Position numbers and translations under genes: made by a program. Below, piece after piece: positions 1-12,826 of a stretch of 12,826 nucleotides of DNA (position 1 is its first letter; every line of letters begins with the position of its first letter). The notes under the pieces were generated by a model. It was not told where the DNA came from, ran no database searches, and saw only the letters and a list, made by a program, of their open reading frames with translations. Origin of the DNA: a virus (Duplodnaviria; Heunggongvirae; Uroviricota; Caudoviricetes); the IMG/VR virus record IMGVR_UViG_2585427758_000013. One strand, 5' to 3'.

Positions 1-1293
<1,293 letters not shown>

Positions 1294-1414
1294 TACCCAA
1301 TTTTTCTGAATCTAAAAAGCGCCTGCGGGCGCTTTAAGTAGAGGTTTAATCATTTGAAAATAAATGGATTTTATTTTTAAGTGTCCATATAACGTCCATC
1401 TTTGAATGCAAAAA

Positions 1415-1448
1415 GCCCACAGTTTCTATGCTGTGGGCTTTGTTTTTT
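1415..1448 (+). terminator. rho-independent terminator downstream of serS
   Basis: Stem gcccacag (1415-1422), loop tttctatg, stem ctgtgggc (1431-1438), followed by tttgtttttt. A weaker GC hairpin gcgcc-tgcg-ggcgc at 1319-1332 sits directly after the serS stop. Confidence 0.6.
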
Positions 1449-1470
1449 GGTGTCCTCATGAGTGAGGGAA

Positions 1471-1504
1471 CCAAAAAGAAAACCCGCAGTTTTTACGCTG
1501 CGGG
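1471..1504 (-). terminator. rho-independent terminator for the minus-strand hok-like transcript
   Basis: On the minus strand: stem cccgcag / ctgcggg (1483-1489 and 1498-1504) followed by TTTTCTTTTT (complement of 1471-1482). Lies about 95 nt 3' of the hok-like stop. Confidence 0.5.
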
Positions 1505-1598
1505 CTTGTTGTTCACGTCAACTGGAAATAGGGTGTCTTTTCGACCTTTACCCTGGCAACCGATTGACGGGGAAGTTGCCTTCCCCGTCGCGGTTTCC

Positions 1599-1739
1599 TT
1601 ACTGCTTACACTGTAAGAACGCCGCAAACTCCGCTCCCCAGAAACTCATCCGTATTTCACACAGCGAACCGTGCAGCATCCAGATGATGAGGATTGCCGT
1701 CACGCAGAACGTGATGGCCGTAAGCGATTTTTGCGACAT
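1599..1739 (-). CDS. hok: Hok/Gef-family type I toxin (46 aa small membrane peptide)
   Basis: Hand translation of the minus strand from ATG at 1739-1737 gives MSQKSLTAITFCVTAILIIWMLHGSLCEIRMSFWGAEFAAFLQCKQ, stop TAA at 1601-1599. It has a hydrophobic N-terminal helix, the SLCEIR motif and an AAF...C-terminal tail as in Hok/HokA/RelF. AAGGAG Shine-Dalgarno 8 nt upstream. Not in the supplied ORF track (too short). Confidence 0.6.
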   Translation of the reverse strand: MSQKSLTAITFCVTAILIIWMLHGSLCEIRMSFWGAEFAAFLQCKQ

Positions 1740-1869
1740 AGCACTTGCTCCTTTTCCGGAGAGGCGCTAACCTTTCACTTGTCAAGGTAATGCGGTTAGG
1801 GCCTCGGTTAAACAGAGATGTTTTCCGGGGCCTTTCCACATCTGGCCTTCGGGTATTCCCTCCGACCAT
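1657..1869 (-). CDS. mok: Mok-like overlapping reading frame (70 aa)
   Basis: 70-aa ORF in a different frame that starts upstream of the hok-like gene and ends inside it, the arrangement seen in hok/mok/sok loci. No strong Shine-Dalgarno; the exact start is uncertain. Confidence 0.4.
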   Translation of the reverse strand: MVGGNTRRPDVERPRKTSLFNRGPNRITLTSERLAPLRKRSKCYVAKIAYGHHVLRDGNPHHLDAARFAV

Positions 1870-1929
1870 CAGCCGAAAGGCACCCGCGCGTAATCTATCG
1901 CGTTTTTGTTACTCCGGCAATTCTGCCTG

Positions 1930-2190
1930 TTAATTCTGAGATAAAGGCAAACTCATCTGATTGTTTCCCCTGTGTGAAGCTGGCAACTCATGCCACGGGA
2001 TACCTTCTGAAGAGTGAACGCCGGGGGCGTGTTTCGATGTGAATTTATGGAAAGCTTCCAGTGTTGAGAAACTTATGCCGCATTCCAGGTTGTTACACTG
2101 GTAATATTTTTTCCGTACGGTGTTTGAATCATTTTCCGAACGACTGGTGCGGATACGGGCAGATGCGCCACAAAGCGGACAACGGAACAT
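1930..2190 (-). CDS. ogr: Ogr/Delta-family zinc-finger late-gene transcriptional activator
   Basis: 86-aa ORF beginning MFRCPLCGASARIRTSR...YYQCNNLECGISF: the CPLC...QCxNxxC zinc-finger signature and MF.CPLC N-terminus of P2 Ogr. Lies directly downstream of gpD on the same strand, as in P2. Confidence 0.8.
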   Translation of the reverse strand: MFRCPLCGASARIRTSRSENDSNTVRKKYYQCNNLECGISFSTLEAFHKFTSKHAPGVHSSEGIPWHELPASHRGNNQMSLPLSQN

Positions 2191-2230
2191 AGCGACCTCC
2201 CTTAACGTGGTGCTGCCTATTCTAAGTTGC

Positions 2231-3340
2231 TCACTCTGTTTCCGCTATCCATTCCGGGATTTTTGCCTCAAGCTCAAGCTGCGTGGTAAAACCGCTGTTA
2301 TCAATGGTGTGCTCGGCTTTTGCAATGATCCAGTCCTGATTATCAATCTCGCTTTTAAATCCTGTTACCGTGCCATGCATTTCGGGGTAGAGTTCTGCAC
2401 GTCCACGCGCCAGCGTGATGGAGAATGATGCGGCTCCGCGTTGTAGTTGCTGCCACTTTGCCGCCGCTGCGCGTCTTGCTGTCTGCTCGTTCTGATAAGT
2501 CTTGCGTAACACAAACACATTGCCTTCCGCGCCTTCCATATAATCACCTTCACGGCTGCTGCTTTTCTCCTTTTTGGGTTTTGGCGGTTTACGGCGTTTC
2601 ACGCTGACTTTTTTCTTTTTCCCGTAATTAAGATCAAGCCAGTAAGCGCGTACCCCCGTATACGCTTCGCGGTCAGCAATGCGGAACTGATGGCGATCGC
2701 CGCTGCTGCGTGTGATGGCAAACGATGGCAACGGCTGGCCCTGTGCGTTCACGCCACCGCCGGGCATGATGAATAACAGATTACCGCTTTTTACCGTGGT
2801 GATTGCGCCCAGCATTTCCGCCATGCGCGTAAGGAAGGACATGTCGCTTTCTTCGGTCTGGTCGGCGTGGTCGATTTCGATATCCATCAGCATTTCGCTG
2901 ATTTGCGGTTTCAGACCATACCGATGAGCGATGGCGGATACCACACGCTCAACGGTCACATCATGCCAGGACACCTCACGTTTAACGTTAAATTCATCCC
3001 GAAAATCTGCGCTTCTGGCTGAAACAGTCAGCCTGTCCGGCGGTCCTTCGTGAGCGATTTCATCAACAATGTAAGTGCCTTTTTCTGTCAGCGGTTCTCC
3101 TTTCCAGCCAATGAGAACCGTCAGGCGCGCGCCCCGTGGCGGTAGCTGCAACTGACCATCCGCATCATCCAGCGTGATGGTGAGCTGGTCCGCCTCAAAT
3201 CCCCGGTTGTCGGTCAGTGACAGGCTCATCAGGCACTCTGCCACGCCTGACAGCGTTTTACCCTCCGCGAGAATATCAAAATCCGGCATTTTCACGGGGT
3301 CTGTGCCCTGACTGAGCAATTGCATGGTGGTGTCGGTCAT
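2231..3340 (-). CDS. D: P2 gpD-family tail protein (late control gene D)
   Basis: Translation carries gpD-family blocks (IDHADQTEESD, RAYW, KWQQLQRG, GFKSEIDNQDW). The ORF track extends to 3472, but the likely start is the ATG at 3340-3338 (MTDTTMQLL), which is preceded by GGAGGGAG. Confidence 0.85.
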   Translation of the reverse strand: MTDTTMQLLSQGTDPVKMPDFDILAEGKTLSGVAECLMSLSLTDNRGFEADQLTITLDDADGQLQLPPRGARLTVLIGWKGEPLTEKGTYIVDEIAHEGPPDRLTVSARSADFRDEFNVKREVSWHDVTVERVVSAIAHRYGLKPQISEMLMDIEIDHADQTEESDMSFLTRMAEMLGAITTVKSGNLLFIMPGGGVNAQGQPLPSFAITRSSGDRHQFRIADREAYTGVRAYWLDLNYGKKKKVSVKRRKPPKPKKEKSSSREGDYMEGAEGNVFVLRKTYQNEQTARRAAAAKWQQLQRGAASFSITLARGRAELYPEMHGTVTGFKSEIDNQDWIIAKAEHTIDNSGFTTQLELEAKIPEWIAETE

Positions 3341-3497
3341 CTGCTCCCTCCCTGTGCGGCATGGTCGCATGTGCGTGCGGAGGGGGTTACTGCTTTTTGT
3401 TGTCGCCGTGGCGGGAGAACGGCGCAGGGGGGAGATTACGCGCGTGGTGGGTGATGATTGTTGCCGAATCATTTAACGGATACAAGGGGCTGAAGCT

Positions 3498-4682
3498 ATG
3501 AGTGAAACTCGTTTTCATGGTGCCCGTGTTACGGAAAGTACCGACCTGGTAACAGCGATTAACGATGTTGATTCCAGCGTTATCGGTATCGTGGCAACGG
3601 CGGATGATGCGGACGCGAAGCTGTTCCCGCTGAACAAGCCCACACTGCTGACCCGCGTCAATGACGTGCTGGGAAAATGCGGGACAACGGGGACGCTTTA
3701 TCGTGCGCTTAAGGCCATCGCAGACCAGGTGAGCACAAAGGTGATCGTCGTTCGCGTGGCTGAACACAAAGAAGAAAACGGAAAGACGCAGGATCAACTG
3801 GTTATCGGTGGTTCTGAATCTGACGGCAGCTATACGGGGATGTATGCGCTGCTTGTTGCAGAGCAGGATGAAAGCATCGGATACCGTCCGCGTATTCTGG
3901 CCGCGCCGGAGCTGGACACGGAGGCGGTGACAAAATCCCTGTGCGTGATTGCGGGTAAACTGCGCGCGTTTGTGTATGCCGCATGTCATGGTTGTAACAC
4001 GATGGCTGAGGCGATTACCTACCGCCAGAAATTCAACGAACGTGAGGTGATGCTCTTATGGCCTGACTTCATCGCCTACAACCCGAAAAGTGGCAAAAAC
4101 GAAACGTTCCCCGCGCCTGCTTATGCGTGCGGCCTTCGTGCGTACATTGACCATGAGCAGGGCTGGCACAAATCGCTGTCCAACGTTCCGGTTAAAAATG
4201 TGCTGGGGATGTCGAGGCATGTGTTCTGGTCGTTACAGGCCGAAGACAGTGATGCCAACAGCCTCAACAACAAAGAAATCACGACCATTATTCGTCGTAA
4301 CGGGTTCCGCTTCTGGGGCAACCGCACACCGGAAACGAACGCCTACATCTTTGAGGTGTATACCCGAACCGCACAGGTGCTGGCTGATTCAATTGCGGAA
4401 GCGCAGTTTGAAACCATCGACAGTCCACTGACGCCTGCGAACGTGAAGGATGTTATCAGTGCCATCAGGGCAAAACTGGATTCGCTGGTTACTGCCGGGA
4501 AACTGATTGGCGCGGAGTGCTGGTATGACGTGGTGGATAACGGCACCACGGATTTACGTCAGGGACGTGTGCGTATTCGCTACAAATATACGCCCGTTCC
4601 GCCACTGGAAGACATGGAGCTTTACCAGACGTTTACTGATGAATTCTTTGGTCCCGCATTTGCGGTGCTGGGAGGTGCCTGA
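3498..4682 (+). CDS. FI: contractile tail sheath protein (P2 gpFI family)
   Basis: 394-aa ORF with sheath-family blocks (LRAFVYAA, WPDF, EQGWHKSLSNV, RRNGFRFWGNRT, YKYTPVPPLE). AAGGGG Shine-Dalgarno upstream of the ATG. Confidence 0.9.
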   Translation: MSETRFHGARVTESTDLVTAINDVDSSVIGIVATADDADAKLFPLNKPTLLTRVNDVLGKCGTTGTLYRALKAIADQVSTKVIVVRVAEHKEENGKTQDQLVIGGSESDGSYTGMYALLVAEQDESIGYRPRILAAPELDTEAVTKSLCVIAGKLRAFVYAACHGCNTMAEAITYRQKFNEREVMLLWPDFIAYNPKSGKNETFPAPAYACGLRAYIDHEQGWHKSLSNVPVKNVLGMSRHVFWSLQAEDSDANSLNNKEITTIIRRNGFRFWGNRTPETNAYIFEVYTRTAQVLADSIAEAQFETIDSPLTPANVKDVISAIRAKLDSLVTAGKLIGAECWYDVVDNGTTDLRQGRVRIRYKYTPVPPLEDMELYQTFTDEFFGPAFAVLGGA

Positions 4683-5194
4683 TGGCTGTACCAAAACATC
4701 TTCGCTTTTTTACGCTGTTTGTGGATGGTGAAAACGAAGTGGGTAAGGTGACGTCCGTCACTCTGCCTAAGCTGACGCGCAAAACCGACAGCTACCGGGG
4801 TGGTGGCATGATGGGGGCGGTAAGTATTGATCTCGGTCTGGACGACTCCGCGCTTGATGCGAGCTTTGTCATGGGGGGAGCTGTTCGTGCGCTGTTCCTT
4901 AAATATGGCGGCACGATTGACGGCACGCTGCTGCGTTTTGCGGGTGAATACTACACCGATGCAGAAAGCGATCTGTATGAAATCGAGATGCGCGGGCGTG
5001 TGACGGAAATTGATATGGGGGAGGCCAAACAGGGCGAAGCCACATCACACACTTACGCTGTCAAAAACACCTACTACAAGCTGAGCGTTAACGATCGCCC
5101 GCTGTGGGAAATCGACCTGTTGAACCACATCTACCGGAAGGACGGCAAGGACATTGTGCCCGATCGCATCCGTTCCGCGCTCGGGCTTGGCTGA
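4682..5194 (+). CDS. FII: tail tube protein (P2 gpFII family)
   Basis: 170-aa ORF directly after the sheath gene. Its start overlaps the FI stop (TGATG); GGAGGTG Shine-Dalgarno. Size and position match P2 FII. Confidence 0.88.
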   Translation: MAVPKHLRFFTLFVDGENEVGKVTSVTLPKLTRKTDSYRGGGMMGAVSIDLGLDDSALDASFVMGGAVRALFLKYGGTIDGTLLRFAGEYYTDAESDLYEIEMRGRVTEIDMGEAKQGEATSHTYAVKNTYYKLSVNDRPLWEIDLLNHIYRKDGKDIVPDRIRSALGLG

Positions 5195-5614: not shown

Positions 5615-5778
5615 TCACGGTTGTGTGCTTTGAGCACATAGAAGACTTTGTGGCGGATATTGCCGCCATTTTTAACTGGTCGCCCGCCGAAATCTTCATG
5701 ATGACGCCCGGCGAAGTGGTTAGCTGGCGTGAGCGGGCGGCACTTCGCAGCGGGAATGCAGACAATGAAGACTCTTGA
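5249..5778 (+). CDS. E': E+E' fusion chaperone made by programmed -1 ribosomal frameshift
   Basis: A -1 slip on T6G (5560-5566) moves the E frame into ORF 5542-5778 (...NFF-ERCGLWREER...). The E' frame ends at TGA 5776-5778, overlapping the tape-measure start. Same logic as P2 E/E' and lambda G/GT. Confidence 0.65.
5560..5566 (+). other. slippery heptamer TTTTTTG (recoding signal for E/E')
   Basis: Six T followed by G at 5560-5566, in frame so that AAT-TTT-TTG can slip back one base. Confidence 0.6.
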
Positions 5779-8572
5779 TATCCGGGTCGCTTTCAGCGCC
5801 GTTGACAGGCTGACCCGGCCTGCCGAAAACGCCCGCCGCCTGATGGGGCAGTTTGGTGACTCCATCCAGCGAACGCAGGGGGCGATCAAAAATCTCGAGC
5901 GTCAGGCGCGATCATTTGAGCGCGCCCGCGACGCTGTCAGTAAAGCGGATGCGGGTATCGTGAAAGCACGACGCCAGCTTAACGCCCTTAATCAGTTACA
6001 ACGCACGGGTACAGTGCTCAGCGAAAAACAACAAAAGCTGATGCAGCAGTTAAGCACCCGGCTTGAACGCCTGAATGAATCGCGCACACGGGAAATTCAG
6101 AAAATGCGGGAGCTTGGCGGAGAGCTGAAACGCCACGGCATTTCCCTGACAGGCAGCGATAACACCATCCAGCAGGCCATCAGACGCACCGAACAGTACA
6201 ACAACCAGCTTGAACGCGAACGGCAGGCGCTTGCGCGTGTAACGCGGGCGCGTGAGCGGTATTCGCGCGCGCAGGAAACCGCGGGAAAACTGAAAACAGG
6301 TGGTGCGCTGGCAATTGGTGCGGCAGCGGCGGGCGGCTATGCTGCCGGGCGTTTTTTGCAGCCTGCGATCGGGTTCGGCAAAGAGATGTCCCGCGTTCAG
6401 GCACTGACGCGAATCGACAAAAACAGCCCGCAGTTTAAGGCGCTGCGTGAGCAGGCGTTAAAACTTGGCTCTGAAACACAGTTTACTGCGAGTGATGCCG
6501 CCAGTGGGCAGAGCTTTCTGGCAATGGCTGGTTTTACTCCGCAGGCCATTCAGGCCGCATTGCCCGGTGTTCTTAATATGGCGCTGGCAGGTGGCGTCGA
6601 ACTCGGCGAGACGGCGGATATAGGCTCCAATATCCTCACACAGTTCAACCTGACAGCCGATCAAATGGACCGGGTTGGCGATACGCTGACAGCGGCATTC
6701 ACCCGGACCAATACTGATTTACGCGCGCTGGGCGAAACCATGAAGTATACCGGTCCGGTTGCCGCAAAACTTGGTATCAGTCTTGAAGAAGCGGCGGCTA
6801 TGGCCGGGATGCTTGCCAATAATGGTCTTCGCGGAAGCGATGCTGGCACGGCCATGCGCGCAAGTCTGTCCCGCCTTGCATCACCGCCAAAAGCTGCGGC
6901 TGATGCACTGAAAGAGCTGGGGGTGTCAGTTGCTGACGCCAGAGGCAAAATGCGCCCGATGGAGGATGTGCTGCTTGATCTCTATAAGGCGACACAAAAA
7001 TACGGACAGGTGGACCAGGTCTCCTTCTTCAAGGACATCGCCGGAGAAGAGGCGTTCGTTGGTTTGCAGACGCTTGTTGCGGCGGCTGGTTCAGGAGAGC
7101 TGCAAAAACTGACCAGAGAATTGCAGGGGGCAAGGGGAGAGGCCGATCGCGTTGCAAAAGTAATGGCCGATAATCTTGATGGGGACCTGAAAAATCTCGA
7201 CAGCGCATGGGAAGGTCTTCGTATTCGCATCAGTGATCTGGTTGACGGTCCGCTGCGTTCTGTCACGCAGTGGCTCACGCGGGTGCTTGAAAAAATCACC
7301 TCGCTGGCGCAGGCCCATCCGGTACTGACGCGCCAGCTACTGATAGCAGGCGGTGCGTTGCTGGCAATGACTGCAACGATTGGCTCGTTGTCACTGGTTA
7401 TTGGGGTGCTTTACGGGAAGCTGGCCACCCTGCGTCTTGGTTTTGACATTCTTACCCGGTCAATGAATGTCGTCAGGGTGTTGCCTGCGCTGTGGGGAAT
7501 GGTGACGGGTTCCGTTTCTTTGCTGGGAGGCGCTATCGGGGCGCTGTTCAGTCCGGTTGGTCTTATCGTGGCTGCGCTTGCCGGAGCTGCCGTTCTTATC
7601 TGGAAATACTGGGATCCCATCAGGGCATTTTTTGCCGGGGTGTTCAGCGGGATTATGGAAAGGCTGAACCCGTTGCGTGAAACCTTTGAACGGTTTGGTC
7701 CTGTTTTTGACGCAATCGGAAGCGGGATCAGCCAGGTGTTTAACTGGTTTAAATCGCTGCTGTCACCGATGGAGTCCAGCAAGGAAACGCTGGATAAATG
7801 TACCAGTGCTGGCGAGATATTCGGTAACGCTCTTGGTGGCGCGCTACAGCTTGTTCTGACGCCTGCAAAAATGTTGCTGGATACGCTGGCGTGGATACTT
7901 GAAAAACTCGGTGTGCTTCCGGATGAAGCGGAAAGGGCGAGAAAGAAAATCGAAGACGCACAGCGTGCGGCCATTCTTCAGGACAAGGTTGCTCTGTTTC
8001 AGGGAGACATTGCGAAAATCAATCCGCCGAAGTCTGCGGAAAATGGCAATGGCACCGGAGGCGATAAACCCAAAGACAACAAACCGCTCACAGACAGCAA
8101 TACCGGCACGCTACGCAGACTCAGCAAAATTGCTGATAACACAGGTAAGCTGGTTGATGAGACAAAAAAACGTATTGGCCCCGGCGATATTGTCTTTAAG
8201 AACCTGCCCCGCGCACTTGCTGTTCGTGGGGAGTGGCAGGAGCGGAAGATTGCACAGGTCAGTAAGCCTGCCCCCGCAATGAATATCACCCCCGTGGTCC
8301 CGGCTCCGCTGCCTCCGGCGCTGGTCCCTGTTGTTGCGGCCAGCTCCCGCCCGGTGGCGGAGGCCATACGATCTCCAGTGGCATCAGTTCCTGTAACTTC
8401 CCGTAACCGGGAGCCTGTTGCCTCCGGATTTGGTGGTGAAATTCATGTTCATCTGCATAACGTTGTTACGCAGAATCCCCGCGAACTGGCGAAACTGGTC
8501 GGTGAAATGGTCAGGGCAGAAATGGAACGGCGCGCCCGTGCCGGGCGTGGCAGTTTTTACGATAAAGATTGA
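5756..8572 (+). CDS. T: tail tape measure protein (P2 gpT family)
   Basis: Very long ORF with a coiled-coil N-terminal third, central hydrophobic/Gly-Ala-rich segments and a Pro/Val-rich C-terminus, placed after E/E'. The ORF track starts at a GTG at 5729; ATGs at 5756 and 5765 are alternative starts, so the start is uncertain. Confidence 0.88.
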   Translation: MQTMKTLDIRVAFSAVDRLTRPAENARRLMGQFGDSIQRTQGAIKNLERQARSFERARDAVSKADAGIVKARRQLNALNQLQRTGTVLSEKQQKLMQQLSTRLERLNESRTREIQKMRELGGELKRHGISLTGSDNTIQQAIRRTEQYNNQLERERQALARVTRARERYSRAQETAGKLKTGGALAIGAAAAGGYAAGRFLQPAIGFGKEMSRVQALTRIDKNSPQFKALREQALKLGSETQFTASDAASGQSFLAMAGFTPQAIQAALPGVLNMALAGGVELGETADIGSNILTQFNLTADQMDRVGDTLTAAFTRTNTDLRALGETMKYTGPVAAKLGISLEEAAAMAGMLANNGLRGSDAGTAMRASLSRLASPPKAAADALKELGVSVADARGKMRPMEDVLLDLYKATQKYGQVDQVSFFKDIAGEEAFVGLQTLVAAAGSGELQKLTRELQGARGEADRVAKVMADNLDGDLKNLDSAWEGLRIRISDLVDGPLRSVTQWLTRVLEKITSLAQAHPVLTRQLLIAGGALLAMTATIGSLSLVIGVLYGKLATLRLGFDILTRSMNVVRVLPALWGMVTGSVSLLGGAIGALFSPVGLIVAALAGAAVLIWKYWDPIRAFFAGVFSGIMERLNPLRETFERFGPVFDAIGSGISQVFNWFKSLLSPMESSKETLDKCTSAGEIFGNALGGALQLVLTPAKMLLDTLAWILEKLGVLPDEAERARKKIEDAQRAAILQDKVALFQGDIAKINPPKSAENGNGTGGDKPKDNKPLTDSNTGTLRRLSKIADNTGKLVDETKKRIGPGDIVFKNLPRALAVRGEWQERKIAQVSKPAPAMNITPVVPAPLPPALVPVVAASSRPVAEAIRSPVASVPVTSRNREPVASGFGGEIHVHLHNVVTQNPRELAKLVGEMVRAEMERRARAGRGSFYDKD

Positions 8573-8578
8573 GGAGTC

Positions 8579-9073
8579 ATGGCCATGATGATGATCTACG
8601 GCATGTTTGTTTTTGAGCTGCGTACGTTGCCGCATCAGCAGTTACAGCAAAACAAAAGCTGGCGGCATGTGAAAAATGAACGCGTTAACCGTTCAGCAAG
8701 CTGGCAGTATATCGGGGCAGGCGATGATCGCATCGTTCTTTCTGGTGTGCTTTATCCTGAAATTACAGGTGGCGAAGTGTCGCTTTCGTTGCTGACCACG
8801 CAGGCATATACAGGACGCCCCTGGCCTCTGATTGATGGTGTCGGGCAGATTTACGGCATGTATGTCCTGACCGGAACGAATACGACCCGCTCCGAGTTTG
8901 ATCGCTACGGTAAGGCGAAAAAGATAGAGTTTTCACTGACTCTTGAACGCTGTGATGAGGATTTGCGGGAGCGCCTGCAATCCTCATCGTTCAGTGATAT
9001 GCTGTCCGGCTTCAAAGATAAGGTCACATCATCCCTTAACAGCGCGGCCAGCTCCGTTAAAGGGCTGTTTTGA
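8579..9073 (+). CDS. U: tail protein gpU family
   Basis: 164-aa ORF immediately after the tape measure. GAGGAG precedes it; ATGs at 8579, 8585, 8588 and 8591 are all possible starts. Confidence 0.8.
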   Translation: MAMMMIYGMFVFELRTLPHQQLQQNKSWRHVKNERVNRSASWQYIGAGDDRIVLSGVLYPEITGGEVSLSLLTTQAYTGRPWPLIDGVGQIYGMYVLTGTNTTRSEFDRYGKAKKIEFSLTLERCDEDLRERLQSSSFSDMLSGFKDKVTSSLNSAASSVKGLF

Positions 9074-9080
9074 TTAACGC

Positions 9081-9110
9081 AAAACCGCTAATGGTCAGAT
9101 TAGCGGTTTT
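9081..9110. terminator. bidirectional hairpin between convergent gpU and invertase
   Basis: aaaaccgctaat-ggtcag-attagcggtttt: a perfect 10-bp stem flanked by A-run and T-run. The invertase stop codon (9100-9102) lies inside the stem. Confidence 0.6.
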
Positions 9111-9699
9111 CATTTTCCTGAGTCTGCCTGGTTGTTTCTTCAGCCTGTATATCGCCTACAGGGTGATAACGATAAATCGTCGATATGCCGATGTCGTAAA
9201 TGATCGCCAGTTGTTTCCTGTCATGACCGTTTTTAATCAGCCTCGCTATTTGCTCGTGTTGTTCTTTTGTCAACTTCGGGCGACGTCCGCCAATGCGTCC
9301 TTGTGCGCGTGCTGCTGCCAGCCCGGCCAGTGTACGCTCTACAATTAATTCACGTTCCATTTCGGCTAAAGCCCCCATGACGTGAAAAAAGAAACGCCCC
9401 ATGGGTGTTGATGTGTCAATGCTGTCCGTCAGACTACGGAAATTAACACCTTTTTCCCGCAATTCCTCAATAAGCGTGATCAGGTGTTTCATACTTCTGC
9501 CCAGTCTGTCCAGCTTCCAGACAACCAGCGTATCTCCTTCTGATAGCGTTCTGAGCAGTTTTTTCAATCCCGGTCTGGCTGATTTCGTTCCGCTGATTTT
9601 ATCTTCAAAAATCAGTTCACATCCTGCGCAGTTCAGTGCATTGCGTTGTAAATCCGTGTTCTGGTCATTTGTTGACACACGAACATAGCCAATTTGCAT
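9100..9699 (-). CDS. serine-recombinase DNA invertase (Hin/Gin/Pin/Cin family)
   Basis: N-terminus MQIGYVRVSTNDQNTDLQRNAL with the catalytic Ser in the GYVRVST block, then TLVVWKLDRLGRSMKHL, FFHVMGALAEMERELI and a C-terminal helix-turn-helix. AGAGGA Shine-Dalgarno 8 nt before the ATG at 9699; the longer ORF to 9894 is probably an upstream extension. Confidence 0.9.
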   Translation of the reverse strand: MQIGYVRVSTNDQNTDLQRNALNCAGCELIFEDKISGTKSARPGLKKLLRTLSEGDTLVVWKLDRLGRSMKHLITLIEELREKGVNFRSLTDSIDTSTPMGRFFFHVMGALAEMERELIVERTLAGLAAARAQGRIGGRRPKLTKEQHEQIARLIKNGHDRKQLAIIYDIGISTIYRYHPVGDIQAEETTRQTQENENR

Positions 9700-9753
9700 A
9701 AAAAACATCCTCTTTGTTTCGTGAAAAATACATAGTTGGTATAGGTAGGGATA

Positions 9754-9779
9754 AAAACGAAAACGTTGGTTTGGGGGAA
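9754..9779 (+). other. putative invertase crossover site 1 (hix/gix-like, 12-2-12)
   Basis: aaaacgaaaacg TT ggtttgggggaa. The inner ...GAAAACG-TT-GGTTT... matches the AAAACC-AA-GGTTT dyad of hix/gix-type sites as I recall them. Confidence 0.55.
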
Positions 9780-10277
9780 GGTTCTGCGCTGCCTGTTGGT
9801 GTGCCCGTTCCGTGGCCCTCAGCAACACCACCAACGGGCTGGCTGAAATGTAACGGCGCAGCATTTTCTTCTGAAATGTATCCCGGACTGGCAAAGGCTT
9901 ACCCCACCAATAAATTACCGGATTTACGGGGTGAATTTATTCGTGGCTGGGATGATGGACGTAGTGCGGATGCGGGGAGAACAATATTATCCGCTCAAGG
10001 TGATGCCATACGTAATATCTATGGTGAGTTCAAGACTGTAAACACTGAAAATTATTCAATATGGGAATCAGTAGGCTCGTTTAAGGGGGCAGTGGTGCCT
10101 TTAAATTCCTCAACAAACAATAGTTATTTCTCCTTAGTCAGAAGTATGGTGACAGAAAGGACAGACGGCGCTGTTTACCCAAAAGTGATTGGCCTTGATG
10201 CTTCAAAAATTGTTCCAACTGCAAACGAAAACCGCCCACGCAACATTGCGTTTAATTACATCGTAAGGGCAGCATGA
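9754..10277 (+). CDS. silent tail-fibre C-terminal (receptor-binding tip) cassette 1; no start codon of its own
   Basis: Frame opens through crossover site 1 as ...ENVGLGEGSALPVGVPVPWPSATPPTGWLKCNGAAFS...PDLRGEFIRGWDDGR, then a unique core, then the conserved end NRPRNIAFNYIVRAA and stop. Sequence upstream of the site is invertase promoter, not fibre coding. Confidence 0.75.
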
Positions 10278-10296
10278 AAACGTTGGTTTGGGGGAA
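10271..10296 (+). other. putative invertase crossover site 2
   Basis: agcatgaaaacg TT ggtttgggggaa. It spans the stop codon of cassette 1 and the first codons of cassette 2. Confidence 0.55.
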
Positions 10297-10821
10297 GGCT
10301 CTGCACTGCCCGTTGGTGTACCTGTTCCGTGGCCCTCAGCCACTCCACCAACGGGCTGGCTGAAATGCAACGGCGCAGCATTTTCTCCTGAAGATTACCC
10401 CAAACTGGCACAGGCTTACCCCGCGAACAAATTACCGGATCTACGGGGTGAATTTATCCGTGGCTGGGATGATGGACGTGGCTTGGATGCTGGGCGTGCC
10501 TTGCTAAGTCTTCAGGATGACTCTTTTGAAGCGCACAGGCATGAGTCCTTTTTTTATGCGGGTATTTCACGTAATGAGATCCCATTAAAAAATCTTCCAA
10601 GTTCAGACGAGATGCTGACTTTAAGTTCCACAACTAATGCCTTGTCCCCGGACGATATTGATGCCACCAACTCGTTAATTGGTAATGACGATTACAACTG
10701 TCTTATCGAAGGGAATAAAAATAACAAACGAACAGCGACAGGACTGAGTACCAGTATTGTCGGCACAGCAGAAACACGCCCCCGCAACGTTGCATTCAAT
10801 TACATCGTAAGAGCCGCATGA
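10288..10821 (+). CDS. silent tail-fibre tip cassette 2 (gene segment; frame is open from 10267 through site 2)
   Basis: Same conserved N-module and C-terminal TRPRNVAFNYIVRAA around a unique core carrying an HRH motif. The M in the ORF track is a TTG inside the crossover site, not a real start. Confidence 0.75.
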   Translation: MGEGSALPVGVPVPWPSATPPTGWLKCNGAAFSPEDYPKLAQAYPANKLPDLRGEFIRGWDDGRGLDAGRALLSLQDDSFEAHRHESFFYAGISRNEIPLKNLPSSDEMLTLSSTTNALSPDDIDATNSLIGNDDYNCLIEGNKNNKRTATGLSTSIVGTAETRPRNVAFNYIVRAA

Positions 10822-10840
10822 AAACGTTGGTTTGGGGAAA
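10815..10840 (+). other. putative invertase crossover site 3
   Basis: cgcatgaaaacg TT ggtttggggaaa (one substitution in the outer right half). Confidence 0.55.
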
Positions 10841-11260
10841 GGCTCTGCGCTGCCCGTTGGTGTGCCCGTTCCGTGGTCCTCAGCAACACCACCAACGGGC
10901 TGGCTGAAATGTAACGGCGCAGCATTTTCTTCTGAAATGTATCCCGGACTGGCAAAGGCTTACCCCACCAATAAATTACCGGATTTACGGGGTGAATTTA
11001 TCCGTGGCTGGGATGATGGGCGCGGGATTGATGCGGGACGTACCCTGCTTTCAGGGCAGGATGGTACAAGTTTTTCTCATTACGGAGGTAATTTCGACAT
11101 TGGGTCTGGTCATTCAATCAATAACTATGACCAAATTGTTTCTAACCAACCAAGCTTTTCCCGTTTTTCATTTGCAGGACCTTCACGAGGTGATGGGGTC
11201 AATTATGTAACCATTCGTCCTCGTAATATTGCGTTTAATTACATCGTAAGGGCAGCATGA
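10832..11260 (+). CDS. silent tail-fibre tip cassette 3 (gene segment)
   Basis: Conserved N-module (nearly identical in DNA to cassette 1), short unique core, conserved C-terminal RPRNIAFNYIVRAA. Confidence 0.75.
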   Translation: MGKGSALPVGVPVPWSSATPPTGWLKCNGAAFSSEMYPGLAKAYPTNKLPDLRGEFIRGWDDGRGIDAGRTLLSGQDGTSFSHYGGNFDIGSGHSINNYDQIVSNQPSFSRFSFAGPSRGDGVNYVTIRPRNIAFNYIVRAA

Positions 11261-11279
11261 AAACGTTGGTTTGGGGGAA
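11254..11279 (+). other. putative invertase crossover site 4
   Basis: agcatgaaaacg TT ggtttgggggaa, identical to site 2. Confidence 0.55.
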
Positions 11280-11747
11280 GGCTCTGCACTGCCCGTTGGT
11301 GTGCCTGTTCCATGGCCCTTAGCAACACCACCAACGGGCTGGCTGAAATGTAACGGTGCAGCATTTTCTTCTGAAATGTACCCCAAACTGGCAAAAGCCT
11401 ACCCCACTAATAAATTACCGGATTTACGCGGAGAATTTATCCGTGGCTGGGATGATGGGCGAGGAATTGATGCGGCACGCGCTTTATTGAGCATTCAAAA
11501 CGGGATGTTGGAAAAACACCGCCATATTGTTGTAGCTAACGATGGATATGACACAAAAGATGAATGGGAGTTGGCTACGATTTTCAAAAAAACATATACA
11601 CAAGGCAGGGGGCTTGATGCCACAAATACAGGAGGGAGTTTGATTCCATCACCAACGCTTCATTCACGAGGAAGTATTGGTAACACAGGTGGTAGTGAAA
11701 CCCGCCCCCGCAATATTGCATTTAACTATATCGTGAGGGCGGCTTAG
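11271..11747 (+). CDS. silent tail-fibre tip cassette 4 (gene segment)
   Basis: Conserved N-module, unique core with HRH motif, conserved C-terminal ETRPRNIAFNYIVRAA. Stop TAG at 11745-11747, convergent with the tfa stop 6 bp away. Confidence 0.75.
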   Translation: MGEGSALPVGVPVPWPLATPPTGWLKCNGAAFSSEMYPKLAKAYPTNKLPDLRGEFIRGWDDGRGIDAARALLSIQNGMLEKHRHIVVANDGYDTKDEWELATIFKKTYTQGRGLDATNTGGSLIPSPTLHSRGSIGNTGGSETRPRNIAFNYIVRAA

Positions 11748-11753
11748 TTATAT

Positions 11754-12365
11754 TCAACTGGCTGCTGCCAGTGGTATTTCCGGCAAGTTGATATCTGGTA
11801 CCATGTTTATATCCATTGCGTTCAGCGCGTCTATATAATCCAGCACGGCATTAAGCCGGGTGGTTTCTGCCTGCGTCAACTTCCGCCCGGCCTGCAACTT
11901 CAACTGAATCAGACTTATGGAAGCCATTGCCGCATCAGCCAGTGACTGGCGCTTGGTTTCTGCCGCTTCTACTGCGGCACGATGTTGTGCCTCAGTATCT
12001 GTCACCCATTTTTCACCATCCCATTTATCGTATGGTGTTAACGGGGCGATAGTGGTTGTAGTTTTCGGGTAGTCACCCAGCGCCGTGATTTCTTCGGTGT
12101 TTCCCGTGTCAGTGCTATAGACGGTTTCACCACGATGGTCTGGCGCATACTCCCATGAACTTAAATTCTCCGAACGGCGGATAGCATAGCCCGCTTTATG
12201 TGCGCCCGGGGCATCTAAACAGGAATTTGCCGGAATACCGACACCCACAGCAAGATATTCAGTTGATTCGGAAATATATTCCCGTGTCTCACCATCATAG
12301 TTATAAACGACGATGTTTCCTGCCTGTACGGCAATAAGGTCATCATTTAATATCGCGTTATTCAT
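11754..12365 (-). CDS. tail fibre assembly protein / chaperone (Tfa; P2 gpG or Mu U-like)
   Basis: 203-aa ORF whose ATG overlaps the stop of cassette 5 (TAATG), i.e. translationally coupled. C-terminal region (...LNAVLDYIDALNAMDINMVPDINLPEIP) resembles the conserved Tfa C-terminus. Confidence 0.8.
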   Translation of the reverse strand: MNNAILNDDLIAVQAGNIVVYNYDGETREYISESTEYLAVGVGIPANSCLDAPGAHKAGYAIRRSENLSSWEYAPDHRGETVYSTDTGNTEEITALGDYPKTTTTIAPLTPYDKWDGEKWVTDTEAQHRAAVEAAETKRQSLADAAMASISLIQLKLQAGRKLTQAETTRLNAVLDYIDALNAMDINMVPDINLPEIPLAAAS

Positions 12366-12826
12366 TATGCGGTTCTCACAATATAATTGAAGGCAATATT
12401 GCGTGGGCGGTTTTCATTCCCATCTGAGGATTCCGTTCTGTATTGACTGGTAAATCTACCGTTAATTGCACCTTGCCGGACGGCGTTATCTGTCGACAAC
12501 AGACTATCCCCTCTTTTGTCATTTGGCACCAGTACCGTGTTATCCCACGCATCCCATGACCGAATATTATGATAATGACTTCCTGTTAACCACCCCTGCA
12601 TGCTTAAGATGCCCCTTCCGGCATCCACCCCGCGCCCATCATCCCAGCCACGGATAAACTCACCGCGTAAATCAGGTAATTTTAACGTTGGGTAAACCTT
12701 TGCCAGATTTGGGTACATTTCAGAAGAAAATGCTGCACCGTTACATTTCAGCCAGCCCGTTGGTGGTGTGGCTGAGGGCCATGGAACAGGCACACCAACG
12801 GGCAGTGCAGAGCCTTCCCCCAAACC
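12365..12826 (-). CDS. expressed-position tail-fibre tip cassette 5; 3' part of the tail fibre gene, 5' end beyond the window
   Basis: Same conserved N-module (GEGSALPVGVPVPWPSATPPTGWLKCNGAAFS...) and C-terminus (RPRNIAFNYIVRTA) around a unique core with an HYH motif. The reading frame continues upstream off the window, so this is the C-terminus of a longer H-like fibre gene. Confidence 0.8.
   Translation of the reverse strand, partial: GLGEGSALPVGVPVPWPSATPPTGWLKCNGAAFSSEMYPNLAKVYPTLKLPDLRGEFIRGWDDGRGVDAGRGILSMQGWLTGSHYHNIRSWDAWDNTVLVPNDKRGDSLLSTDNAVRQGAINGRFTSQYRTESSDGNENRPRNIAFNYIVRTA
12815..12826 (-). other. right half of putative crossover site 5 (inverted orientation; core and left half lie beyond the window end)
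   Basis: The window ends ...ttcccccaaacc, the reverse complement of ggtttgggggaa. The core dinucleotide would be the next two bases past the window. Confidence 0.5.

Follow-up and report, generated by a model that had tools for sequence, protein, structure and literature searches.

The stretch of DNA analyzed here (hereafter the window, 12,826 nucleotides, IMG/VR record IMGVR_UViG_2585427758_000013) carries a row of cassettes that each start at a 26-bp motif, next to a gene for a serine DNA invertase. The locus raises the question of whether these motifs are the crossover sites of a DNA-inversion system that exchanges the end of a tail fiber gene and, if so, which system it is and whether it still operates. 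Very probably it is a Min-type multiple DNA-inversion system (a serine-invertase "shufflon") of a P2-like prophage in E. coli. Such a system is already described, and the biology is ordinary and known. The carrier is a chromosomal P2-like prophage by serS, with sheath, tube, tape measure, gpU, and gpD genes nearby, and its best full-length relative is 99.3% identical over positions 1-3500 of the window. The features of the locus are collected in Table 1.

Table 1. Features of the inversion locus, in coordinates of the window (position 1 is its first letter); L-numbers denote the compared loci.
Feature	Coordinates	Strand	Details
Serine DNA invertase, Min/Pin type, 199 aa	9100..9699	-	Pfam Resolvase 2.1e-51 and HTH_7 1.4e-12
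Putative Fis-dependent recombinational enhancer	9610..9681	-	Gene nt 19-90, 5′ end of invertase gene
Crossover site 1, adjoining invertase	9754-9779	+	AAAACGAAAACG TT GGTTTGGGGGAA; 24/26 to p15B mixMI''L'
Silent cassette C1, 169 codons + stop	9768..10277	+	Pfam Collar 2e-14; fused in frame to H in L008
Crossover site 2	10271-10296	+	AGCATGAAAACG TT GGTTTGGGGGAA; 23/26 to mixN''O', mixMr''N', mixO''P', mixP''Q'
Silent cassette C2, 178 codons + stop	10285..10821	+	Pfam Collar; fused to H in L001
Crossover site 3, variant right half	10815-10840	+	CGCATGAAAACG TT GGTTTGGGGAAA; best 22/26 to mix
Silent cassette C3, 143 codons + stop	10829..11260	+	Pfam Collar; fused to H in L010 (E2348/69 assembly NC_011601.1)
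Crossover site 4	11254-11279	+	AGCATGAAAACG TT GGTTTGGGGGAA
Silent cassette C4, 159 codons + stop	11268..11747	+	Pfam Collar; fused to H in L011
Quasi-site inside C4	11647..11672	+	CATCACCAACGC TT CATTCACGAGGA; recombined with a real site in SCU-101 (L009)
Tail-fiber assembly (chaperone) gene tfa, single copy	11754..12365	-	Pfam Caudo_TAP 9e-31; overlaps C5 stop (TAATG)
Cassette C5, 153 codons + stop	12365..12826	-	Pfam Collar 1.6e-14; fused to H in L007 (E2348/69 assembly CP059840.2)
Right half (GGTTTGGGGGAA) of inverted site 5	12815-12826	-	Core and left half beyond window edge

The motif GAAAACGTTGGTTTGGGGGAA occurs exactly at 9759, 10276, and 11259 and with one mismatch (GGGGAAA) at 10820, always on the + strand, and none of 200 shuffles contained even one match. 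The initial annotation had proposed sites of 12-2-12 layout on the cassette boundaries, and four complete 26-bp sites in one orientation are found there. The fifth site was said to be inverted and cut by the window edge, and this is the case: its right half alone lies within the window, whose last 12 nt are the reverse complement of GGTTTGGGGGAAGG. In L011 (E. coli 266917_2), which shares the insertion site and the coordinates of the window, the site at 12826 on the minus strand is TTCTTGATTACC TT GGTTTGGGGGAA and belongs to the tail fiber gene H. From this H site at exactly 12826 we infer that site 5 is the expression site, and C5 is probably the cassette expressed in the present isomer. The left half of the expression site in relatives is TTCTTGATTACC, unlike that of the silent sites.

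Sites 1-4, the H site of relatives, and the quasi-site used in strain SCU-101 all have a TT core. The right half GGTTTGGGGGAA fits the pattern TTC---AAAC- -A -GTTT---GAA in full, and the left halves fit in part, via the inner AAAAC. A dyad of the form AAAAC(G/C)-NN-GGTTT had been read into the sites; in the silent sites the symmetry does not extend beyond the inner AAAC. The cassette in front of each of sites 2-4 has its stop codon inside the left half of the site, as had been noticed earlier (e.g., the TGA at 10275-10277 in AGCATGAAAACG). A conserved block of ~200-230 bp follows each site on its 3′ side, with copies 84-89% alike, and on the 5′ side of each site is a conserved block of 47 nt that codes for the C-terminus of a cassette. 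The number of sites is five in the window and 3 to 8 in relatives.

The motifs had been likened to hix and gix sites. We compared them with published site sequences (Table 3 of PMC3241671). The H site, as read in L011, is identical to p15B mixQ''R' at 26/26 positions, and the silent sites agree with the other mix sites at 22-23/26 for site 3 and at 23/26 otherwise. Site 1, the silent sites, and the H site as read in relatives make up four site types, and these agree with hix, gix, cix, and pix at only 11-21/26. The likening is right as far as the Din family (Hin/Gin/Cin/Pin/Min) goes, but the closest kin are the mix sites (22-26/26), with hix and gix at 13-17/26. These comparisons support the assignment of the motifs as crossover sites of the Hin/Gin/Cin/Pin/Min invertase family. 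An exact search with the 26-bp expression site, against one genome per species with E. coli represented by one genome, gave a single match, in Escherichia sp.

The invertase ORF is intact and encodes the sole recombinase at the locus. Its N-terminus, MQIGYVRVST, includes the catalytic Ser9, and the GYVRVST motif aligns with Cin and Gin. The protein is 100% identical to that of L011. Its identity to the invertase of the prophage of EPEC strain E2348/69 is 99%, and to the Min-type invertase of the P1-like plasmid pYZMc17-1_100k, whose crossover sites equal the published mix sites, 94%. Identity falls to 83% for PinE, 74% for Cin, and 73.5% for Gin. The 5′ end of the gene holds a putative Fis-dependent enhancer. 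This stretch aligns without gaps to the annotated P1 cin enhancer (L004, 2179-2250) at 79% nucleotide identity, compared to 69% between nucleotides 91-400 of the invertase gene and P1 cin. Two 15-mers fit GNNYRNNWNNYRNNC, one (9663-9677) at 6/7 specified positions and the other (9615-9629) at 7/7; these putative Fis sites are 48 bp apart and occupy the same positions in cin and gin. At conserved residues the codons are identical in 10/20 cases within the putative enhancer vs. 31/86 elsewhere, but the stretch also encodes a conserved part of the invertase N-terminus, and this coding constraint confounds its conservation as an enhancer. Judged by the family, recombination would be expected to depend on Fis and the enhancer.

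All five cassette types have been joined to H somewhere. The gene itself lies outside the window and its fusions were read in relatives, where H::C1, H::C2, H::C3, H::C4, and H::C5 are each annotated as an intact CDS in other genomes. The expectation that a crossover always yields an in-frame fusion is borne out by these five. The site had further been translated as E-N-V-G-L-G, with the TT inside the Val codon. As a reading of the silent copies in the cassette frame this is correct, but a stop in the same frame, seven codons upstream of the GGT, leaves E-N-V untranslated in them. At the expressed junction the peptide is L-D-Y-L followed by G-L-G-E, with the TT inside the Leu codon CTT, because the left half of the expression site differs (TTCTTGATTACC). 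In RefSeq, the silent cassettes are annotated as free-standing "phage tail protein" genes.

Natural isomers locate the point of exchange. The modules of L011 are nearly those of the window (C1 517/517, C2 544/544, C3 439/439, and C4-tfa-C5 1557/1559 identical), and their order is C1 C3 C2 [C5 tfa C4'] in L011 vs. C1 C2 C3 [C4 tfa' C5'] in the window. Markers at -12 in the left half and +10 in the right half have kept to their own cassettes: the G-to-A change of site 3 goes with C3, and the leading C goes with the C2 end. Both informative junctions thereby lie between -12 and +10 in a homology that extends from ~-60 to ~+200. Two assemblies of E2348/69 are identical throughout the flanks (2986 and 3754 nt), and the 1998 bp between the cores of one is the exact reverse complement of that in the other, with the inversion breakpoints located within the core to +35 of a 215-bp repeat. 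In SCU-101 both reciprocal junctions of the quasi-site with a true site are present, CATCACCAACGC TT GGTTTGGGGGAA and AGCATGAAAACG TT CATTCACGAGG, with no base lost or gained, and the quasi-site and the true site have only the TT in common. This junction was found in one piece in that strain only (two assemblies). The exchange had been predicted to take place at the TT, and the natural isomers place it inside the 26-bp site rather than elsewhere in the ~190-bp conserved block, in SCU-101 exactly on the TT. The natural isomers support a conservative exchange at the core. Quasi-sites with the same core dinucleotide are known to be used by Cin. Conceivably, though this is rather unlikely, recombination at quasi-sites within cassettes, as in SCU-101, regularly gives rise to new tandem-collar chimeric fibers.

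These junctions bear on the idea that RecA-dependent homologous recombination does the switching, acting on the inverted ~200-bp conserved blocks, with the 26-bp motifs as mere conserved cassette starts. In its favor, the inverted arms are long (210-232 nt, 84-89% complementary), and the block haplotypes are mosaic between strains: in C3 of L001 the block is of the C1 type over its first ~50 nt, a sign of gene conversion or unequal crossing-over. We nevertheless hold this explanation to be very improbable. The exchanges in L011 and E2348/69 are confined to the site or its immediate vicinity despite the far longer homology around them, and homologous recombination cannot join the SCU-101 sequences. 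The left flanks on the H side and on the invertase side, which share no homology with each other or with the cassette ends, nevertheless change partners freely, and an intact invertase of the right family adjoins the cluster. Junction mapping speaks strongly against homologous recombination as the switch, though the mosaic of conserved blocks between strains indicates that over longer times the repeats also undergo homologous recombination or gene conversion.

The locus might instead be a fossil that keeps sites and invertase in a frozen arrangement, e.g., through a defect of the prophage or a lack of invertase expression. The window itself gives no sign of activity in this strain, a consensus scan found no sigma-70-like promoter for the invertase, and the right half of site 3 is mutated. 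Against this stand the intact invertase ORF, with a protein unchanged in L011, and the nearly identical but permuted modules of L011, which point to recent inversions that included the variant site 3. The EPEC system of E2348/69, with its 99% identity, inverts in culture. A fossil is likewise very improbable. Several invertible segments that swap an adhesin-like C-terminus also recall the R64-type shufflon, in which the tyrosine recombinase Rci acts on sfx-like repeats. The likeness is formal: the one recombinase encoded here is a serine enzyme, and in sequence and 12-2-12 layout the sites are those of the Din family. The domains of this enzyme rule out an R64-type shufflon, whose likelihood we regard as negligible.

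A Min-type system would operate here as follows. The constant 5′ part of H is located on the minus strand just past the window and terminates in a 26-bp crossover site. The five alternative 3′ cassettes all start with the same right half-site and code for a collar domain and then a variable receptor-binding region. The invertase would pair two inverted sites, cut both at the central TT, with the 2-bp stagger typical of the family, and swap the halves, probably aided by Fis bound to the enhancer. The DNA between the sites would thereby be inverted and a different cassette would come to stand in frame behind H. Successive inversions would permute and flip the modules, giving 48 isomers and five fiber tips with presumably different host ranges; an effect on host range would again be in keeping with the family. 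The preference for inversion over deletion that is expected of these enzymes agrees with the arrangement of sites. At 10/10 loci examined the arrangement is that predicted when recombination is limited to sites in opposite orientation, with simple modules in + orientation first, then the special module, then simple modules in - orientation, and the four direct sites are retained.

The number of isomers was obtained by simulating inversions between oppositely oriented sites only, which gave four isomers for three sites, 48 for five, and 240 for six. The four isomers from three sites agree in number with the four variants of PMC4272514, and the 240 from six sites equal the figure published for Min (PMC2481393). 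The single chaperone gene tfa is downstream of C5 at every locus examined and is opposite to H in 24/48 isomers. A consensus promoter scan for tfa and the silent cassettes returned 2 matches vs. 6.2 expected, neither suitably placed. The cluster is located between convergent late operons, FI-FII-E-T-U running rightwards and V-W-J-I-H leftwards. Conceivably, tfa could be transcribed from the operon of whichever side it faces, so that every isomer would be productive, but we consider this rather unlikely. If two-sided transcription is wrong, half of the isomers, including all that express C4, would be without a co-transcribed chaperone, and this would amount to a built-in on/off layer above the host-range switch.

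The locus adds little new biology. P2-like prophages, which are common in E. coli, also carry the Min module of p15B (invertase, mix sites, cassettes, and chaperone); the region is matched in 2053/5426 complete genomes, although many of the matches are partial. Assemblies of one prophage in public databases record different isomers. A comparison or a host-range prediction that uses a single assembly sees one of the five possible fiber tips.

The Min multiple-inversion system of p15B, with its mix sites, was reportedly described by Sandmeier, Iida, Meyer, Hiestand-Nauer, and Arber in 1990 and by Sandmeier, Iida, and Arber in 1992. Our comparison with p15B (X62121) used the published site table and a p15B-like P1-type plasmid. 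The present locus is like Min in its sites (26/26 to mixQ''R' for the H site, 22-24/26 for the others, and a TT/AA core throughout). It is like the p15B-like plasmid in that the invertase points away from the cluster, sites bound every simple cassette, two cassettes and the single tfa together form one special module, and the constant fiber gene is at the far end. Nucleotide homology to this plasmid is 84-90% over the invertase, the cassettes, tfa, and ~170 nt of the constant fiber part. The locus differs from Min in its location in a chromosomal P2-like prophage next to serS instead of on a P1-related plasmid, in a constant part that is a P2 H-type fiber gene, in having five sites and 48 isomers rather than six and 240, and in the left halves of the silent sites, which differ at 2-3 positions.

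A second close relative is the "shufflon" that Goldberg et al. (2014, Genome Med, PMC4272514) described in the P2-like prophage of EPEC strain E2348/69, where whole-genome sequencing and PCR revealed four coexisting variants at NC_011601.1 1891695-1893703. Its repeats were described as 215-bp inverted repeats, without assignment to mix-type 26-bp sites (PMC4272514); they start with ACCTTGGTTTGGGGGAAGG. Positions 9000-12826 of the window match this prophage at 97.7% nucleotide identity over 78% of the query. The two share the invertase (99%), the same H, silent, and invertase-side sites, cassettes C3, C4, and C5, and the same tfa. The E2348/69 prophage has three sites and four variants, compared to five and 48 here, and occupies another chromosomal position.

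Cin/cix of P1, Gin/gix of Mu, Pin/pix of e14, and Hin/hix of Salmonella share with this locus the recombinase family and the 12-2-12 sites, and their enhancer at the 5′ end of the invertase gene has a putative counterpart here. As in P1, Mu, and e14, a site lies inside a tail fiber gene and inversion swaps the 3′ end. These switches have two sites and two states, however, and their sites are only 11-21/26 identical to those described here. In P1 and Mu each alternative end has its own chaperone (U, U'), whereas here one tfa serves five cassettes, and Hin switches a promoter, not a coding end. The R64 shufflon (Rci/sfx) is alike in that multiple inversions swap the C-terminus of a receptor-recognizing protein, but it uses a tyrosine recombinase and other repeats, and the two systems are unrelated in sequence and chemistry.

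The cassette cluster at the right end of the window is a Min-type multiple inversion system. Systems of this kind are known: their crossover sites are published, and a sister locus has been verified by experiment. The window comes from E. coli, and 294 complete genomes carry, at a single location, at least 80% of positions 1-3500, which span serS through gpD and hence the prophage junction. Four silent tail-fibre cassettes (C1-C4) lie on the + strand and a fifth (C5) on the minus strand at the right edge, beyond which is the constant tail-fibre gene H. In all five, the first 58 residues are conserved and hold a Pfam phage tail collar domain; the sequence then varies before ending in a conserved C-terminus. 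In the near-identical locus of E. coli 266917_2 (L011), a Hok/Gef toxin gene and an ogr/Delta-like late-control gene are annotated between serS and gpD and mark the prophage end adjoining serS. The gpD-like ORF is intact in the window (413 aa); the L011 annotation has in its place a shortened coding sequence of 800 nt and a pseudogene fragment. The first base of the window is that of the serS ATG, and its last base is the final one of a right half-site, one base short of the site 5 core; these exact ends may reflect how the window or contig was cut.

Features of the window and of related loci (window coordinates unless a locus is named)
Feature	Position	Strand	Sequence
serS	1-1293	+	
Equivalent of L011 Hok/Gef gene	1599-1739	-	
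Equivalent of L011 ogr/Delta-like gene	1930-2190	-	
P2 gpD-like gene	2231-3472	-	
Sheath	3498-4682	+	
Tube	4682-5194	+	
Tape measure	5729-8572	+	
gpU	8579-9073	+	
Serine recombinase	9100-9699	-	
Putative enhancer	9610-9681		
15-mers fitting Fis consensus	9663-9677, 9615-9629		
Site 1	9754-9779	+	AAAACGAAAACG TT GGTTTGGGGGAA
Site 2	10271-10296	+	AGCATGAAAACG TT GGTTTGGGGGAA
Site 3	10815-10840	+	CGCATGAAAACG TT GGTTTGGGGAAA
Site 4	11254-11279	+	AGCATGAAAACG TT GGTTTGGGGGAA
Four cassettes (C1-C4)	9768-11747	+	
Equivalents of RefSeq silent-cassette genes (by analogy)	9771-10277, 10288-10821, 10832-11260, 11271-11747		
Conserved blocks (~200 bp)	9768-9980, 10285-10500, 10829-11040, 11268-11500, 12615-12826		
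Quasi-site inside C4	11647-11672		
tfa	11754-12365	-	
Fifth cassette (C5)	12365-12826	-	
C1-type block at start of C3	L001 6547		
SCU-101 junction	L009 about 4205-4230	+	
SCU-101 junction	L009 about 5373	-	

A 21-nt motif (GAAAACGTTGGTTTGGGGGAA) occurs exactly at 9759, 10276 and 11259 and with one change (GGGGAAA) at 10820, always on the + strand, and had no match in 200 shuffles. The repeated crossover-like sites noticed in the initial annotation are thus confirmed. Extended to 26 bp, the motif copies give sites 1-4 in a 12-2-12 format. The window end is the reverse complement of GGTTTGGGGGAAGG, the right half of an inverted fifth site; the core and left half of this site fall beyond the window edge. 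After each site comes a conserved block of 200-230 bp, whose copies are 84-89% alike. A conserved stretch of 47 nt, encoding the cassette C-terminus, comes before sites 2-4, and the left half of these sites contains the stop codon that closes the cassette before it (e.g., TGA at 10275-10277).

We compared the sites with those of the Din family in the orientation of Table 3 of PMC3241671. The crossover site that ends the constant part of H in relatives (the expression site), TTCCCCCAAACC AA GGTAATCAAGAA, is identical at 26/26 positions to mixQ''R' of the Min system of plasmid p15B. Site 1 matches mixMI''L' at 24/26, and silent sites 2 and 4 match mixN''O', mixMr''N', mixO''P' and mixP''Q' at 23/26. 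The variant site 3 has 23/26 identity to mixN''O' and 22/26 to the other three. The same site types agree with hix, gix, cix and pix at 11-21/26. Reading these as invertase crossover sites was right in substance, and they match the published mix sites.

The recombinase (199 aa, Resolvase and HTH_7 domains) is 99% identical to the invertase of the E2348/69 P2-like prophage, 94% to that of the P1-like plasmid pYZMc17-1_100k, 83% to PinE of e14, 74% to Cin and 73.5% to Gin. Within its gene, nucleotides 19-90 give an ungapped alignment with the enhancer that is annotated in P1 cin. This stretch contains two 15-mers that fit the Fis consensus GNNYRNNWNNYRNNC, which reportedly goes back to Hübner and Arber in 1989; they are 48 bp apart and occupy identical positions in cin and gin. 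The stretch is consistent with a Fis-dependent enhancer but does not prove one, because the same nucleotides encode the conserved catalytic N-terminus. The gpU and invertase genes converge on a 12-pair hairpin that is flanked by A-rich sequence on its left and T-rich sequence on its right and looks like a two-way terminator.

The initial annotation took the junction position in natural isomers as the decisive test, and the junctions fall inside the 26-bp site in L011 and on the TT in SCU-101 (L009). The L011 prophage has the same place and coordinates, and its invertase protein is 100% identical to the window's. Its modules match those of the window (C1, 517/517; C2, 544/544; C3, 439/439; C4-tfa-C5, 1557/1559), in the order C1 C3 C2 [C5 tfa C4'] versus C1 C2 C3 [C4 tfa' C5']. 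The left half opens with C where C2 precedes it and with A where C1 or C3 does, and this base moves with the preceding cassette. The right-half G-to-A change of site 3 (GGTTTGGGGAAA) accompanies C3 to its different position, and this variant site seems to be still usable. Since both markers stay with their cassettes, the two L011 junctions are confined to -12..+10 of the core; homology extends from ~-60 to ~+200. The L011 H site is at 12826(-), the exact window edge, which makes site 5 almost certainly the expression site. Two E2348/69 assemblies (NC_011601.1 and CP059840.2) have identical flanks over 2986 and 3754 nt, and the 1998 bp between two TT cores are exact reverse complements, with breakpoints resolved to core..+35.

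Homologous recombination between the conserved blocks would be another source of such junctions. SCU-101 decides against it. There a real site (AGCATGAAAACG TT GGTTTGGGGGAA) and the quasi-site (CATCACCAACGC TT CATTCACGAGGA) have recombined by inversion, and the two reciprocal products are both present, namely CATCACCAACGC TT GGTTTGGGGGAA and AGCATGAAAACG TT CATTCACGAGG. The parents have TT alone in common and zero bases were lost or gained; therefore, the exchange is on the core dinucleotide, and homologous recombination is rejected as the source of the switching junctions. The quasi-site junction was found in one piece in SCU-101 only, where it gives an in-frame fusion, H::C4(1-131)::C5, whose fibre has two collar domains. 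The blocks themselves are mosaic between strains. C4 has four different block versions, and C3 of the relative L001, which lacks C1, begins with a C1-type block. This suggests that gene conversion or unequal crossing-over between blocks reshapes the repeats over evolutionary time, alongside site-specific switching at the core.

A simple module runs from right half-site to left half-site, and the single special module (C4, tfa, C5) has a right half-site at each end. If only oppositely oriented sites recombine, the arrangement must be simple modules on +, the special module, then simple modules on -, and 10/10 loci examined show this order. Simulation gave 4 isomers for three sites, 48 for the five sites of this window and 240 for six. 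The last equals the published figure for Min of p15B (PMC2481393), and the first equals the four variants coexisting in the E2348/69 P2-like prophage (PMC4272514). There, two overlapping inversions (NC_011601.1 1891695-1893703 and 1892127-1893703) were found by paired-end sequencing and PCR, with 215-bp repeats starting with ACCTTGGTTTGGGGGAAGG (Goldberg et al., 2014). This locus is the one in the two assemblies compared here (L010 and L007, respectively).

Each cassette type ends some intact annotated H gene, with a length of 378 constant codons plus the cassette (H::C1 in L008, H::C2 in L001, H::C3 in L010, H::C4 in L011, H::C5 in L007). The H frame in relatives is ...V-L-D-Y-L/G-L-G-E-G-S-A-L-P-V-G-V, with the TT within the Leu codon CTT. 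The E-N-V junction proposed initially is present in the silent copies but confined to them, and is not translated because a stop closes the frame seven codons before GGT. RefSeq annotates silent cassettes (L001, L002, L011) as free-standing "phage tail protein" genes beginning at TTG within the right half-site; these lack a start context of their own, and a stop in the same frame lies shortly before them.

The single tail-fibre assembly (chaperone) gene, tfa, is always downstream of C5 and translationally coupled to it. It is anti-oriented to H in half of the 48 simulated isomers, including all that express C4, and in 3/10 loci examined. We looked for a promoter suited to tfa and found none. 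The cluster in this prophage sits between convergent late operons, so read-through from the side of gpU might conceivably transcribe tfa. The strong hairpin at 9081-9110 argues against this, as do P1-like plasmids, which have no late operon on the gpU-equivalent side.

Among these, pYZMc17-1_100k has the layout of the window: an invertase that points away is followed by cassettes, one tfa, further cassettes and the fibre gene. Of its 8 sites, seven have the sequence of a published p15B mix site and the remaining one differs from such a site at one base. Homology to the prophage, at 84-90%, takes in the invertase, the cassettes and tfa and continues upstream of the expression site for ~170 nt into the constant fibre part (L011 12826-12994 compared with L013 8378-8763). 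The whole inversion module seems to have moved between phage types. P1 and Mu have one chaperone gene per alternative fibre end, whereas here one tfa serves five cassettes.
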